Both the position numbers and the translations under genes were made by a program. A stretch of DNA of 64,000 nucleotides, taken from assembly GCA_965218695.1 (NCBI GenBank), contig OZ244651.1, forward strand, positions 1,600,001-1,664,000. Reading direction: 5' to 3'. Of this stretch, positions 20,103 through 55,204 are shown piece after piece (position 1 is the first letter of the stretch; the number at the start of each line of letters is the position of its first letter). A model generated the notes under the pieces. The model had not been told where the DNA came from. It was given only the letters and a program-made list of their open reading frames with translations, and did not search any database. Source of the stretch: Nitrosopumilus sp. Lineage in GTDB: Archaea > Thermoproteota > Nitrososphaeria > Nitrososphaerales > Nitrosopumilaceae.

Positions 20103-21277
20103 AGAGACATAATCCGTAATTGGGCATAACCACGCGATTGGACGCATTGCAGGACAAATCCGGTTGACTGCATGGAATTGCATGTCAATTCGAACTTACC
20201 CAATGATCAAAACTATACGTCAGTCGTGTTTTATTCTGATTGCCCATATCAAAGCATGTCATTATACGACAGATTGGCAAAAAAGCCCAAACTGTTCATC
20301 CGGTGCACTGGACTGACAGTCTCCGAATTTAATTTGGTGGCAGGACGGCTGGCAAAAAAATACCCCAAGGCAGAGCAAAAGCGACTCTCCAAAAGAAGCA
20401 GGGTGCGCGGCATTGGTGCCGGACGCAGGTGGAAACTGGATCTGAAAAACAGGTTTCTTCTGGTCCTGTTTTATTACAGGACATACGCCACGCAGGATCT
20501 TCTTGCCATGGTGTTTCAGGTGGGCCAGGCCAGCGTGTCCCGCAGCATGGGGGCACTGGAGCCGTCGATCCGGCAGTGCGTTCCGCTTCCGTCAAAGATA
20601 TACTCTGACATCAAGGCCACCAAGACGCTTGACGATCTTGAGGAGATCATTCCGGGCCTGACTGCCCTGATTGATGCCTCCGAGCAGCAGATACAACGTC
20701 CCGGGCGCAAGGACATGGAACGGTTCCACTACTCGGGAAAGGCACACAGGTACACGTCCAAGGTCCAGTACACATCGGCCACGGACGGCCTCATCCTTCA
20801 CAAGACCCGGCATTCCCCGGGCAGGATCCACGACTTTGCAGTATTCAAAAAGAAACACCCGGCATTCCCTGACAACCTTACACGCAAGGACGGGAGCAGG
20901 GACAAGAAAAGGACCAAAGTAAGGGAGCTTCTGGACAGCGGATACCAGGGGATCAACAAGGAGTTTCCTGACCGGGATGCCGTAGTGCCGTACAAGAAGC
21001 AAAAAGGCGTAGAATTGTCCCCCGAGCAGAAGGAATTCAACAAAAAACACTCAAAGGTACGGGTGTATGTGGAACACGCCATCCGCAGGGTCAAACGGTT
21101 TCGCATAATGGGCAGTGTCTGCCGAAACCGCCTGAAAAAATATGACACCGTCAATGACATCGTCTGTGGATTTGCCAACCTCAGAGTTCTCCTAGTCCGG
21201 GAAGCGGCCGGATAGGAGTCAAAAACCTACACAATATAGGAAAATATGCACAATTTCTAATTACGGATTATGTCTCT
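20103..21277 (+). mobile_element. IS5-family (DDE_Tnp_4-type) element, intact transposase 20256-21215
   Basis: 19-bp IR AGAGACATAATCCGTAATT; IDASE, YSGK, DSGYQG, RVYVEHAI. Confidence 0.9.
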
Positions 21278-21510
21278 GTAAGGGATACGGATCGTTGACT
21301 TGACTGCCGCCAGGGAGGCAAAGAACGAGTCTGCATACTGGAAAGGAGCCCCGACCTTGCGACGGTTGGCTTTTTTGACCTCGATGCACCTCTCCGGGTC
21401 ATCGCGAATAATTAATGCCTGACCGCGCCTGATGTATTTTTCGTTGTCCGTCTTCAATCCGACACTCTAGGATCCACTGATCTTTAGCTTTTTCGGTCTA
21501 GAACACAGCC
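21278..21510 (-). mobile_element. 5' remnant of another IS5-family element
   Basis: N..KVGAPFQYADS...L...K....IPYR N-terminal motif; end GGCTGTGTTC at 21510. Confidence 0.65.
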
Positions 21511-21822
21511 AACATCACTCACTGCAACTAGGCGTAATTATGCATCTATGTAACCCATCCCCGGACTTATCCAGGTTTTGCGTCCAGCTTGTCATTTTGG
21601 GTGTGTTTTTTGTCTTCTTAAGCGTTACCTGCATGCAGAATCCTGCCAGATCCGCAGAAAACGTGGCTTGTTGCCCCGCGGAGTGACATGCATAATCCCT
21701 TCCGGGGGGTCTGGGGGGCTGGCCCCCCAGCATTCATGTAGAAACATCCCACAATTCCCACAATTCGTACACAGCATCCGCTAGGGCCGGCACTGCATTT
21801 ACTGACACCACCGGTTCCGCGT

Positions 21823-22772
21823 CTACGCCTCCTTCATGACTTGTCTGATCTTGGCGCGGTACAGCTTTTCGTTTCTGTCCTCGTACAGGTTGTCTTCTGT
21901 CAACATGTGCCAGATGATCGTCAGCATCTTGTTTGCGACGTGCGTTATGGCGATGTTGTGCCTGTGCCTCTTCATGAGGCGCTCGTAGTATGCCTTCATC
22001 CTCGGGTCGTGCCTCACTGCCACCAGCGCGCACTGGACCATGACCCAGTTGACCCTGCCAGTAGTGCTGCAGAAAACGCGTCCATCCCGGTAATGCTCAT
22101 CAGTATCTTCGGGCTGTGGGCGTCGCGGACGTAGCGCCTGATCTCGTTTTCGGTCTTTTTTATCTCGTCGTTGTAGTGCCGTATCTTGGCTATGCAGCGG
22201 TCCAGGACGAACCTGTCATGGGGACTCTCCACGTCGGCTTCTTCAAGGTACGCCAGGACCCTTTTGGTCCAGACGTTTTTCCCGCCGTCCTTCGGGTTCA
22301 CGTCATACTTGTCAGTCAGCGTGTGCACGAAGTTTATCGCCCTGGTCCTGTCCTGCACCAGGCGGATCTGGTACCTGAGGATCTGTTTTATCCCCCTGGA
22401 TTCGGCCGAACCCAGGTGGCAGGCGGGAATCAGGTTGGATCTTAGCAGGTGGGCAAGCGTTCTTGCGTCGATGGTGTCGTTTTTTATGCTGGCAGACGCG
22501 ATTGCCTTGATCTTGAACGGGTTTGCAAGGGCGATGGGGATTCCCACGCGTTCAAAGGCATCGATGGTCTTTATCCAGTGGTTCCCGGTGGACTCGCAGA
22601 CTGCCCTGCATCCACCGTGTCTGGCCCTTGCGGACGTGGCAAACTCTAGCGCGTCCTTGGCCGTGTTGGCATACGATGACTCTTCGAGGATCTCCCCGTC
22701 GTGCGTCATTACGCATGTCACGCATTTTCTCTTTCCTATGTCGATTCCAATACTCTTTTCTATTTCTCTCAC
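21823..22772 (-). pseudogene. IS110 transposase with an internal deletion and frameshift
   Basis: GIDIG, CEST, KNDTIDA present; the GLxP..SG segment is absent; C-terminus (WVMVQCA...ANKML.IIW.ML) is in another frame. Confidence 0.88.
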
Positions 22773-22779
22773 CTCCTTT

Positions 22780-22935
22780 CCGTGTGTGACAGGCTGGAAG
22801 CTGCATGCATCTATCAGGACTCGAAGTCCAGTAACCCAGCAGCTCGGATAGCCCCATTCAACAGGAAGGCCTTGACGACCATGCATAATTAGGGGTCAGC
22901 CCGTCACACACGGTGAGTGGGTCGGGTTATCATGT
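22780..22935 (-). ncRNA. candidate IS110 bridge/seek RNA
   Basis: 17-bp closing stem (22780-22796 / 22897-22913) enclosing segments that match the element's donor and target junction arms. Confidence 0.75.
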
Positions 22936-23342
22936 ATTCAACAGGCTATACTCGCCCGCACGTGAAAAAGGAGGCATCCGCAAGCACGTCGGATCCGTTT
23001 TTCTGGCATGTCGCGTCGGCCACGCCCCGGCAGGCGTTTGACACGCTGTGAATTTTAATGGAATGCAAAAAACGAGTGCATGCCATGCCGGGGCCGCGCG
23101 TTCCGCGGGCCGGCATTCGCGCGTGCCTTGCATGCTGCCAAGGCAAACCAGTTTATAGTCAGAGCCGCCCAACCGAGACATCATGGCCGCCTGTAACCCC
23201 TTCCGATTCGATGCTTTCCGGGCCCTGGCCCGCTTTGAGGCAGCCTATGGGTAGCTTGCAGCGTCCTGACGGTTGCGGCCGCGGCGGCGTCCTGCGTGGG
23301 GATCCCGCCCCCTCCCCGCGGCGCGAAGGCGGGGGAAGCGTC

Positions 23343-37100: not shown

Positions 37101-37356
37101 ATCAGCAATGCTGGCAGCGACCTGTTCCGGTTCGTGCTGAACCCAAAGATCCCGCCTACAAACAATGCTGCAGAACGCGGGTTGCGCGAGATAGTCGTGC
37201 ACAGAAAAATACGGGGCAGCATAAGGGCAGAGGAGACGATGACGTGGATGGCGAATTTCTTTTCATGTGTAATGACATGGAAAAACAAGAAATTGGATTA
37301 CTTGGCGGAGATTGCAAAATACGCCTAAAAATGAGTTAAACCACGTGAACACTTAC
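34150..37356 (+). mobile_element. IS66-family element interrupted by an IS5
   Basis: GTAAGTGTTCACG IRs; transposase 34241-35379 continues at 37061-37328. Confidence 0.92.
35380..37057 (-). mobile_element. IS5-family element; transposase 35692-36899 frameshifted near the C-terminus
   Basis: IR AGATC..ATGCAGAATG.GCCTGA, 3-bp TSD AAG; VDGT, YSGKKK, DKGYQG, IEHVIG. Confidence 0.92.
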
Positions 37357-39315
37357 AAATATTCTAAAGCAGAAAGACAAAAAGCTGGAACAGAAAGACA
37401 AAAAGCTGGAACAGAAAGACAAAAAGCTGGAACAGAAAGACAAAAAGCTGGAACAGAAAGACAAAAAGCTGGAACAGAAAGACAAAAAGCTGGAACAGAA
37501 AGACAAAAAGCTGGAACAGAAAGACAAAAAGCTGGAACAGAAAGACAAAAAGCTGGAACAGAAAGACAAAAAGCTGGAACAGAAAGACAAAAAGCTGGAA
37601 CAGAAAGACAAAAAGCTGGAACAGAAAGACAAAAAGCTGGAACAGAAAGACAAAAAGCTGGAACAGAAAGACAAAAAGCTGGAACAGAAAGACAAAAAGC
37701 TGGAACAGAAAGACAAAAAGCTGGAACAGAAAGACAAAAAGCTGGAACAGAAAGACAAAAAGCTGGAACAGAAAGACAAAAAGCTGGAACAGAAAGACAA
37801 AAAGCTGGAACAGAAAGACAAAAAGCTGGAACAGAAAGACAAAAAGCTGGAACAGAAAGACAAAAAGCTGGAACAGAAAGACAAAAAGCTGGAACAGAAA
37901 GACAAAAAGCTGGAACAGAAAGACAAAAAGCTGGAACAGAAAGACAAAAAGCTGGAACAGAAAGACAAAAAGCTGGAACAGAAAGACAAAACCCTAAAAA
38001 ATATTCTAAAGCAGAAAGACAAAAAGCTGGAACAGAAAGACAGGGAGTTGGGCCTTGAACGCGGCCTGTGGAAGAGCAGGAACGATGGCTGGAACCCCGG
38101 CAAGGGGCCCGCGTTGCACCTGCTAGAGGTGCTAGACGGCATAATACGCGACGGGGACAAGCTCCGCCATGTCACGCTGGCAGACGGGGAACAGTTCCGG
38201 TACATGCTGGAGCGGGCCAAGGTGTTTCTGACGCATTCGGGCCAGATGCCGCTGTTCCGCGATAACGCATCCCGGACATCCGATCCCGGAAACCGGTGCA
38301 AACTGTACCTGAGACACGCACTGCTCCTAGCACTTATCCGCAAAAAGGACAACCCCGCCCAAGGCGTGCTTGCCGCATTCTTCGGGATAGACCAGACCAC
38401 CGTGTCCCGGTACATTCCGGTGATGGACGCGATGCTGACAGGGATACTTCCGACGGCAGACAACATATCCGAGGAGGTAGCTGCTGCCCCGACCAGGGAG
38501 GATTTCAAGAAGATCGTGCCCGGGTCCGACGGGGGCGAGATATTCATAGACGGCACGCACTGCCCCGTGCAGCGCCCGTCTGTAAAGTCAGTCCGGCGCA
38601 TGGGATACTCCGGCAAGAAGAAAAAGTTCACCAACAATACCAACGTGTACACCAACCGGGACGGGGTGGTGATCGGCATATCAAAAAGCACCGTCGGGTC
38701 AGTCGGCGACATCACGCTGCTCAAGGAACGCCCCATGCCGTTTGGAAAGTGGGAGGAGGCGATGCACGATCCGGACCTGCCAGAATCAGACAGGTGCCAC
38801 CCCTTCGTCGACCGCGGCTACCAGGGAATCGCAGACCACCTGCCCGGCACCACGCCGGAGATCCCGCACAAGAAGACCAGGGACACGCCGCTGACGCCGG
38901 AGCAAAAAAAGCACAACCACAGGATCAACTCCACCAGGGTGTTGGTGGAGCACACGATAGGCAGGCTCAAGCGCTACGCGCGTCTTGCCGACCCGTACGA
39001 CGGCAACGCGGCCCAGTTCAACAGGGAGTTTAACGTGATCACCGGGCTGGTAAACCTGAACATTGTGGGACTGCATGGAAAAGGGTCCGCCACCGCCAGG
39101 GCAGTGGAAGACGTCAGTAGACTGGGACAGGGCCTGCTCCGAAGCTCCGGTCAAGTAGAATTCAGGGCACGATGAAGTGCTGCAAGGCTGCGCACGTCAT
39201 TTTGGATTTTGGGGTGAACGGACTTGCCACATACACGACACGAGCAGTTTTAGGCCGTATTTTTCCGGTTTTTTATGGCCGGGTTGGCAAAATGGGTGGA
39301 TTACGCATATCTTCT
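37357..39315 (+). mobile_element. IS5-family element lacking its left end; transposase with coiled-coil N-terminus and C-terminal frameshift
   Basis: IDGT, YSGKKK, DRGYQG, VEHTIGRLK; right end matches 18537 onward. Confidence 0.85.
37370..37990 (+). repeat. 21-bp perfect tandem repeat x29 encoding heptad QKDKKLE
   Basis: Unit cagaaagacaaaaagctggaa, in frame with the transposase ORF at 38048. Confidence 0.95.
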
Positions 39316-54850: not shown

Positions 54851-54985
54851 CCCCTCCCAGAGGCCTTTTGCCGTCGTTTTTCGTGAAATACGTAAGGAAT
54901 CTGCGTCCATGGGACTAGAATTCTTTTAGACTCGGCCTACGGTAACTTGGCAGCTTGGATAGCTCCATTCACCAGAGGCCTTTGC
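54851..54985 (-). ncRNA. stand-alone ncRNA, HgcC-like, homologous to the IS110 non-coding end
   Basis: GGCCTCTGGT...GCTGCCAAGTTACCGTAGGCCGAGTCT...AAAAGGCCTCTGGGAGGG recalled as HgcC-like (unverified); oligo-T tract downstream; 43/56 match to 22818-22873. Confidence 0.6.
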
Positions 54986-55204
54986 AGTCATTCGTAATCA
55001 GGTGTTAGTCTATCACATCACCTTGTTCCATGCTTATCCGTGTTTTTTGAGTATTTAGCAAACGCGTATACACTGCAAGACAGTGCACGCGTATCAATCC
55101 TGTACAATTCCATACTTTTCTGATCGTGATCTCAGACACAGCTACTTGCCTAGTGTGCAGCACACGCATTAGAATAATTAATATTCTACTCATCCACATC
55201 TACG

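Follow-up and report, generated by a model that had tools for sequence, protein, structure and literature searches.

Can the non-coding end of an archaeal insertion sequence (IS) encode an RNA that recognises both the target of the element and the element's own ends? This question is raised by an IS110-family element on the minus strand of a 64,000-nucleotide stretch of a Nitrosopumilus sp. genome (contig OZ244651.1; G000:C1:1600001-1664000). The whole stretch is called the window here, its copy of the element is called W, and positions are those of the window unless another contig is named. An original prediction, made from the letters of the window, had placed a bridge/seek-type guide RNA in the 5' non-coding end of the element. 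Comparison with other copies and with homologues indicates that W is very probably a non-autonomous copy of an archaeal IS110-family IS, with intact ends and a 5' bridge-RNA gene guiding both target and donor. Segments of the RNA agree with the flanks and with the ends of the element itself, and they covary with the flanks in copies and homologues, in agreement with the kind and place of the predicted guide.

To our knowledge, no guides other than bridge and seek RNAs program a recombinase for both recombination partners, and the systems characterised so far that we know of are bacterial. The genome studied here offers a natural data set, with 19 RNA copies, at least five retargeted subfamilies, and filled and empty sites for three of them. 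The architecture of the RNA is very regular and can be read by eye. The locus also illustrates that a bridge RNA can be called correctly despite wrongly drawn junctions, and that the core is fixed by empty sites only.

Element ends, core and copies

The genome is archaeal by its SSU rRNA, for which the archaeal model comes out ahead in the Rfam clan competition, and it carries many copies of this IS110-family element. Three of them, A, B and C, share 95-99% identity with W and have the same or almost the same RNA region. Element ends and core were set by comparing filled with empty paralogous sites, sister subfamilies and an insertion-free allele. Outside the element, W, A, B and C share TAGCC(T/C)GTTG as left flank and TGCATAATT as right flank. 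Joined, the two flanks give the terminal inverted repeat (17 bp) of an IS5-like element 1.1 kb long; this repeat reads TAGCGTGTTGCATAATT, as do the empty repeats at the target. The 10 bp in front of W are identical in front of B and C, and copy A is preceded by the one-base variant TAGCCCGTTG. Six exact empty IS5-like repeats have the sequence TAGCGTGT-TG-CATAATT, and the four filled sites read TAGCC(T/C)GT-TG-[AATACATG...CATAGA]-TG-CATAATT. The dinucleotide TG is the sole overlap of the filled left junction, the filled right junction and the empty site. Since TG alone is common to all three, the core is this 2-nt TG, and the element is 22938..21545 on the minus strand, inserted 10 bp into the 17-bp repeat.

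Sister subfamilies gave the same core. For subfamily E/I there is an exact empty site, GAGGTTGG-TG-CGTAATTCTTCTGACC, within a repeat belonging to another IS; the empty sites of subfamily D/F lie in a GYSGKKKKF-coding stretch of DDE_Tnp_4 transposase genes. TG is the overlap in both, and the comparison of filled with empty sites thus gives a TG core in three subfamilies. IS110-family elements insert site-specifically without duplication past a short shared core, and this was the pattern found. An allele without the insertion, seen in one contig each of two related organisms (runs X5 and X7), joins 21544 to 22935 and puts the right boundary exactly at 21545|21544.

The original prediction had drawn the junctions elsewhere, with a 4-nt ATAG core, an element spanning 22954..21535, the target CGAGT|ATAG|ATGCATAATTA and the donor TGGGTTAC|ATAG|CCTGTTGAAT, donor guides being nested between target guides. 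All five strings that it quoted exist where it had placed them on the minus strand, and ATAG stands at both junctions of W. ATGCATAATTA, CCTGTTGAAT and ATAGATGCAT occur exactly twice each in the 64-kb window, compared with 0.02, 0.12 and 0.15 occurrences from shuffles. Yet A, B and C have W's RNA and unrelated left flanks (ccaacc, ggtaa and ccaag; cgagta in W), and both the CGAGT left flank and the A of the left ATAG are found only at W. TAG is preceded by c in copy A and by g in copy C, so these two copies lack ATAG; in W the left ATAG consists of one flank base and the TAG that starts the terminal repeat of the other IS. An ATAG core cannot yield the repeat seen in the empty sites, and in the insertion-free allele the break falls at 21544/21545 instead of 21546-21549. 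This version of the core is almost certainly wrong, and the circle junction that it would imply, ...TTACATAG-CCTGTTGAAT..., is scarcely credible. The comparison of filled with empty sites thus did define the ends and a shared target repeat, but with ends and a core different from those first drawn.

Intact copies of the element are 1524 bp long. Intact copy A encodes a 359-aa recombinase with PF01548 (DEDD_Tnp_IS110; 4.1e-22) and PF02371 (Transposase_20; 5.8e-25), which scores 231.5 bits, with a cut-off of 140, on the model NF033542 "IS110 family RNA-guided transposase". In W, a 130-bp deletion between 22055 and 22054 has shifted the frame and removed the segment with the catalytic G..P....SG motif, and only PF01548 is kept; loose contig ends lie at 22054/22055. 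The RNA region and the ends of W are identical to those of copy A. Since its recombinase is broken while its RNA and ends are intact, W would be movable only in trans and, judged from its sequence, is a non-autonomous copy of an archaeal IS110-family IS. Homologues of the recombinase were found in 35 of the 301 genomes of the class, this genome counted, and the recombinases of the homologous loci are 33-79% identical.

A proposed two-loop guide RNA and its DNA partners

Homologous loci were collected by a genome search across the class; a single-protein locus search on contigs had given only two. Upstream regions could be aligned over their full length for 8 copies of this genome and for 24 of 26 homologous loci, and the RNA alignment contains 31 sequences drawn from these own-genome copies and loci of the same class. 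L044, L061 and L062 (contig ends or mis-extraction) and L045 and L048 (upstream region not alignable) were left out before counting, as were copies A and B, which are near-identical to W; the own-genome copies C, F and I are absent from the locus table.

The predicted RNA has five helices: an outer stem (P1), a stem closing loop 1 and its inner hairpin (P2 and hairpin), and a stem closing loop 2 and its inner hairpin (P3 and hairpin). The 17-bp outer stem, already part of the original prediction, pairs 22913-22897 with 22796-22780, including one G-U, and is also reproduced in the minimum-energy fold of the sense strand (-65.4 kcal/mol, z -5.82). Across the 31 sequences, 77.7% of cells are paired, compared with 67.0% after shuffling, and changes on both sides occur in 29 of the 38 base pairs. 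The covariation score is 0.350, against 0.151 in shuffled alignments and 0.067-0.110 with slid partners; none of 500 shuffles was as high for either measure. Among distant members, the outer half of P1 aligns badly. Two positions with G-U pairs (in 10 and 19 sequences) are compatible with the sense strand only. An antisense RNA was considered and rejected: its fold is weaker (-52.3 kcal/mol, z -3.26) and the G-U pairs would turn into C-A.

A covariance model built from this alignment (R1) detects 19 genomic copies, of which 14 score above 90 bits, and a Nitrosopumilus MAG (metagenome-assembled genome) locus at 119 bits; it has no match on the Rhizobium element. A search of 21300-23200 against Rfam release 15, with E up to 10, returned three chance-level matches only, and the bridge RNA is not covered by any curated Rfam family. 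The RNA lies upstream of the recombinase gene in W and in the 24 homologous loci with an alignable upstream region. Downstream of the gene, the non-coding stretch is unconserved, with lengths between about 60 and about 300 nt. A two-loop guide RNA with covarying structure is thus predicted in the 5' non-coding end of W. Elsewhere in the window, a second, weak R1 match (54874-55024, minus strand, 29.2 bits) has loop-1 and P3 motifs and is not followed by a recombinase gene; it represents the degraded 5' part of a related element. A depth peak at 22718-22783 was rejected as a sign of expression: it comes from contigs with other letters at 22737 and 22743, in a coding motif conserved among other IS copies. 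Among the sequencing runs listed, none recorded as RNA contains the locus.

Both sides of each loop have DNA partners (Table 1). The 5' side of loop 1 is the reverse complement of the last right-end base, TG and 8 nt of right flank. Its 3' side is the sense of about 5 nt of left flank, TG and left-end bases 1-3, and would pair with the bottom strand. These partners were evaluated by counting Watson-Crick pairs with a locus's own flanks and with flanks shuffled among loci 20000 times. The left-target guide forms 125 of 196 own pairs (62.2 shuffled), the right-target guide 106 of 184 (52.8 shuffled) and the left-end guide 129 of 174 (91.2 shuffled), and no shuffle was as high in any of the three. 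Covariation of the RNA with the flanks, which the original prediction had named as a check of its guide, is thus present for both target arms. For the right end, the 3' side of loop 2 predicts a 7-mer that differs by clade (ATAGATG, ATAGGTG, ATGGATG, ATGAGTG and ATGGGAG). Scanned 66-760 nt downstream of the gene, where about 0.05 per locus is expected by chance, the predicted 7-mer occurs once in 19 of 26 loci, twice in one and not in six; among these six, one locus is truncated by the end of its contig and two lack an alignable RNA. The 7-mer adjoins the subterminal repeat. On both of their strands, the target and the joined ends are thus complementary to, and covary with, the predicted loop segments, as in the IS110 family.

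With these partners, the segments take on roles other than those first given to them. CCTGTTGAAT, once read as donor-right, is the left-target guide with the core and 3 nt of the left end. CGAGT, once read as the target-left guide, is the 3' half of the donor-loop hairpin, which covaries (GGGCUUCGAGCCC and others), and its match to W's flank is due to chance. TGGGTTAC, once read as the donor-left guide, has no family signal in that role (74 of 191 pairs in 24 loci, compared with 75.9 shuffled; 14599 of 20000 shuffles as high). Family-wide, the segment is complementary to left-end bases 1-6, and its identity with the right-end subterminal sequence, which spoke for the earlier role, is confined to W's subfamily, where one change from U to G in UGUGUUAC gives rise to the 8-mer identity at the expense of one left-end pair. 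The segment at 22881-22891 is complementary to the right target as predicted, and it covers A+TG+CATAATTA. Likewise, the segment at 22805-22814 does include the first 3 nt of the right target, but its ATAG corresponds to right-end bases and belongs to the 3' side of the donor loop. The guides, predicted to be nested in an order unlike that of IS621, follow the IS621 order: first a target loop, then a donor loop, inside one outer stem.

Could the segments instead be subterminal repeats bound by protein, or form a structured 5' leader with a regulatory effect on the recombinase, with the protein picking the target and no RNA guides involved? Subterminal inverted repeats of 8-10 bp are present, and the outer stem ends 4 nt ahead of a GGAGG motif, which the only GTG in W's subfamily overlaps, and could influence translation. 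Yet the DNA with which loop 1 covaries is external to the element and not the same from one subfamily to the next, and the loop segments vary while the stems stay paired by compensatory changes. The NF033542 model is named for an RNA-guided transposase, and the texts of Durrant 2024 (PMC11208160) and Siddiquee 2024 (PMC11187229) describe the RNA as required in homologous systems. We regard a purely protein-based or regulatory explanation as quite improbable.

Several observations weigh against a bridge RNA with all the partners given above. The loci are related and several have common targets, so the shuffle tests overstate independence. The 3-nt extensions agree weakly with their partners: 60 of 90 pairs for the target loop with left-end bases 1-3 (53.9 shuffled; 36 of 20000 as high), and 29 of 72 for the donor loop with right-target bases 1-3 (21.9 shuffled; 308 of 20000 as high). 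The 5' side of the donor loop in W's subfamily has one G-A mismatch to the left end, and copies E and I have one mismatch of the left-target guide beside the core. At D, L046 and L049, the right target fits only after the register is shifted by 1 nt, and one or both arms fit poorly at L037, L040, L041, L056, L058, L059 and L060. Finally, the insertion-free allele is not a clean empty site, as it has an extra 18-nt repeat unit. Between its two sides stand 12 extra letters; in minus sense the allele reads TAGCCTGTTGAATA+ATTACGCCCAGT+TGCATAATTA, and the 12-mer does not occur in the present genome. A tandem duplication in the related strains, loss of a unit here and half-site recombination are candidate explanations for the 18-nt difference. 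The extra unit in the X5/X7 allele would give a perfect left and a perfect right half-site, 18 bp apart.

If W carries a bridge RNA as we propose, the RNA would be transcribed in the sense of the recombinase gene and fold as a three-way junction with an internal loop in each of two arms. Loop 1 would read the target DNA and loop 2 the element's own joined ends, and each loop's 3' side would run 3 nt on into the partner DNA, like the handshake guides of IS621. The DEDD recombinase supplied by intact copies would exchange strands at TG. The expected circle junction would be ...CATAGA-TG-AATACA..., and the circle would be inserted without duplication beyond the core. Boundaries, core, covarying RNA structure and covarying guide-DNA complementarity are what the comparisons show; production of the RNA, its binding by the recombinase and formation of the circle are what we infer.

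Table 1. Features of W, its RNA and its insertion site (window positions)
Feature	Position	Strand	Basis or remark
Left target arm (LT) TAGCCTGT	22941..22948	-	outer 8 bp of the 17-bp IS5-like repeat, left of the insertion
TG core, left copy	22939..22940	-	junction/empty-site overlap
IS110-family element body, 1394 bp	21545..22938	-	left end AATACATGATAACCC, right end GGGTTACATAGA
Left subterminal inverted repeat ATGATAACCC	22924..22933	-	reverse complement of GGGTTA-CAT near the right end
Predicted bridge-RNA gene, three-way junction P1/P2/P3 with two internal loops	22778..22915	-	model R1 match, 143.6 bits
Target loop, 5' side UAAUUAUGCAU	22881..22891	-	complementary to the top strand of A+TG+CATAATTA; covaries with right flank, 23 loci
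Hairpin in target loop, GGUC-GUCAA-GGCC	22868..22880	-	helix 3: 5/5 pairs changed on both sides
Target loop, 3' side CCUGU+UG+AAU	22856..22865	-	sense of left target, core and first 3 nt of left end; covaries with left flank, 28 loci
Donor loop, 5' side UGGGUUAC	22831..22838	-	family consensus UGUGUU complementary to left-end bases 1-6 (AAYACA)
Hairpin in donor loop, GGACU-UCG-AGUCC	22817..22829	-	helix 5: 4/5 pairs changed on both sides
Donor loop, 3' side AUAGA+UG+CAU	22805..22814	-	sense of last 5 nt of right end, core and first 3 nt of right target
Recombinase gene, N-terminal part (DEDD/RuvC-like domain)	22055..22772	-	PF01548, 5.3e-24; putative start
Recombinase gene, C-terminal remnant, out of frame	21823..22054	-	comparison with intact copy A
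Right end, subterminal repeat GGGTTACAT overlapping donor arm ATAGA	21545..21556	-	copy comparison
TG core, right copy	21543..21544	-	empty sites and insertion-free allele
Right target arm (RT) CATAATTA	21535..21542	-	inner part of the IS5-like terminal repeat
IS5-like target element, truncated remnant, last 268 bp	21277..21544	-	transposase of the element: PF01609 and PF13737

Target elements and nested insertion sequences

W's subfamily targets the terminal repeat of an IS5-like element, and its sister subfamilies target the repeat of another IS and a conserved stretch of DDE_Tnp_4 genes, which makes this a case of archaeal ISs parasitising other ISs. The IS5-like element makes an 8-bp target duplication, and PF01609 and PF13737 are found in the transposase that it encodes. 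In W's subfamily all four filled sites can pair fully with the left-target guide, that of copy A through one U-G pair, and all six exact empty repeats would have a single C-C mismatch to the guide at the fourth base left of the core. Repeat position 5 is C in all filled sites and G in all exact empty repeats. This pattern fits discrimination by the guide, in a small sample of sites that are not independent. We considered that the C at position 5 might have been brought in by insertion and rejected this explanation, since TAGCCTGTTG is present in the related strains' insertion-free allele as well.

At G000:C1:239025-243197, both terminal repeats of one IS5-like copy are filled, by copies B and C in inverted orientation, and the 8-bp duplication made by the IS5-like element itself, CTTGGTAA, flanks the whole composite from outside. 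Around W itself there is a nest of three different ISs, in which a DDE_Tnp_4 IS gene (20172-21215, plus strand; PF13359 and PF13613) adjoins the 268-bp IS5-like remnant. Another DDE_Tnp_4 gene of the window (38048-39175, plus strand) has, near 38641, a GYSGKKKKFTNNTNVYT-coding stretch that is an empty target of the D/F subfamily, GGTATTGT-TG-GTGAAC. Antisense to the region of this gene runs a 466-aa open frame (37336-38736, minus strand) in which a long SFLSFCS tandem repeat takes up most of the length; this frame probably reflects tandemly repeated DNA and not a gene. In another genome, the left-target guide UUGUUGUUG of homologue L035 (G227:C1) matches the (GCT)n(GTT)n microsatellite that holds the insertion.

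Place among known bridge and seek RNA systems

A PDB search with the recombinase gave remote matches only, among them IS621 (E 2.4e-12) and ISCro4 (E about 1e-12). The IS5075 protein is 19.9% identical (71 bits), and the nearest bacterial homologues, from Rhizobium and Ensifer, are 34% identical. Its protein being remote from both IS621 and IS5075, the element is filed in the IS110 family at large and in neither of its groups. Archaeal IS110 recombinases on record number 662 in bioRxiv 10.1101/2024.06.21.599552.

The features of the element are mixed with respect to these groups. ISEc21, an IS110-type element in the text of Siddiquee 2024 (PMC11187229), also has an upstream non-coding region and targets a conserved stretch in the transposase genes of another IS family, comparable to the D/F subfamily; unlike the present RNA, its bottom-strand match lies 5' of its top-strand match, and it has no long subterminal repeats. 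The IS1111-group members ISEc11, ISKpn4 and ISPa11, in the same text, resemble our family in that the top-strand match comes first in the RNA. The subterminal inverted repeats of our family (8-10 bp; the equivalent 8-bp repeats of homologues are ATGTAAAC / GTTTACAT) are within the 7-17 bp given there for the group, and its 359-aa recombinase is similar in size to the 330-350 aa reported there. ISEc11 likewise inserts after TG, according to a table in a review (PMC13604230). In contrast, the RNAs of the IS1111 group lie downstream of the recombinase gene, and many have their donor-binding bases in a multiloop, as stated in the text of Durrant 2024 (PMC11208160), whereas the RNA described here lies upstream and has a simple internal loop. 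IS4321 and IS5075, also of the IS1111 group, have a fixed insertion point within the terminal inverted repeats of a different transposon, of the Tn21 family according to the title of Partridge and Hall 2003, and by eye they share the right end CATAGA-T and the left end AAT.... They differ in being bacterial and in having their non-coding RNA region downstream.

Thus, of the features of the IS110 group, the upstream RNA is present, the guide order is opposite, and the subterminal repeats are longer than the absent or 2-3 bp repeats of that group; of those of the IS1111 group, the 7-17 bp repeats and the top-strand-first order are present and the downstream RNA is not. The strand convention used in comparing guide orders was taken from the texts of PMC11208160 and PMC11187229. 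Such a mixture of IS110-type and IS1111-type features bears on the move of the RNA gene from one end of an element to the other.

The mixture might also represent a third bridge-RNA layout, in which an element of the IS1111 lineage has its recombination site upstream of the RNA gene and a TATA-like box, TTTACATA, in the right end drives RNA and recombinase only after circle formation. We hold this idea tentatively and think it somewhat unlikely. In this family, the segment pairing with the top strand stands 5' of the one pairing with the bottom strand, which in the text of Siddiquee 2024 (PMC11187229) is the order of IS1111 and the reverse of that of ISEc21, and in that of Durrant 2024 (PMC11208160) the reverse of that of IS621. 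The 8-10 bp subterminal repeats point in the same direction. By eye, the 34%-identity bacterial homologues carry a longer non-coding region with matching motifs downstream of the gene, and IS5075 ends in CATAGA-TT and has GATAGATTC in its downstream non-coding region. Yet the protein is just 19.9% identical to that of IS5075 and does match IS621 (E 2.4e-12), and the strand orders depend on the wording of the papers. Moreover, Siddiquee 2024 (PMC11187229) already mentions, in the text consulted, a few IS1111-type members with upstream non-coding regions, whose RNAs were not analysed there. A 2026 preprint on large-scale mining of bridge RNAs beside IS110 recombinases in bacteria and archaea (bioRxiv 10.64898/2026.10.21.760802, seen in part) may already include this family.

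The TATA-like TTTACATA is found in the right end of many members and in a circle would put the start a few bases before P1, and we speculate that it is a promoter that is on only in the circle. An undescribed layout that combines IS1111-type polarity, repeats and ends with a recombination site upstream of the RNA gene, spread in ammonia-oxidising archaea and maybe activated in the circle, is possible but doubtful. Our literature search found no account of this archaeal RNA family or of the combination of an upstream RNA with IS1111 polarity, and Supplementary Table 5 of Durrant and the figures of both 2024 papers may contain archaeal members and set out the strand conventions. If this third layout were true, the filled and empty IS5-like repeats would be a natural readout of its specificity.

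Whatever the layout, the bridge RNA proposed for W can be compared with that of IS621 (Durrant 2024, PMC11208160; Hiraizumi 2024, PMC11208158; the scheme as given in the parts consulted). The two systems have in common a recombinase with DEDD and Tnp domains, an RNA upstream of its gene, a target loop followed by a donor loop, and a 2-nt core. In both, the sides of each loop pair with opposite strands, left arm and core on one and right arm on the other, and the 3' sides extend into partner DNA in the manner of handshake guides. They differ in that, relative to the recombinase gene, the polarity is mirrored here, the core is TG here and CT in IS621, and the 5' side of the donor loop leaves the core uncovered here. 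The 8-10 bp subterminal repeats and the outer stem around both loops further distinguish the archaeal RNA, and the protein match is remote. When the DNA is read on the other strand, all segments including the extensions fit the IS621 scheme. Therefore, the archaeal RNA would mechanistically be a canonical two-loop bridge RNA.

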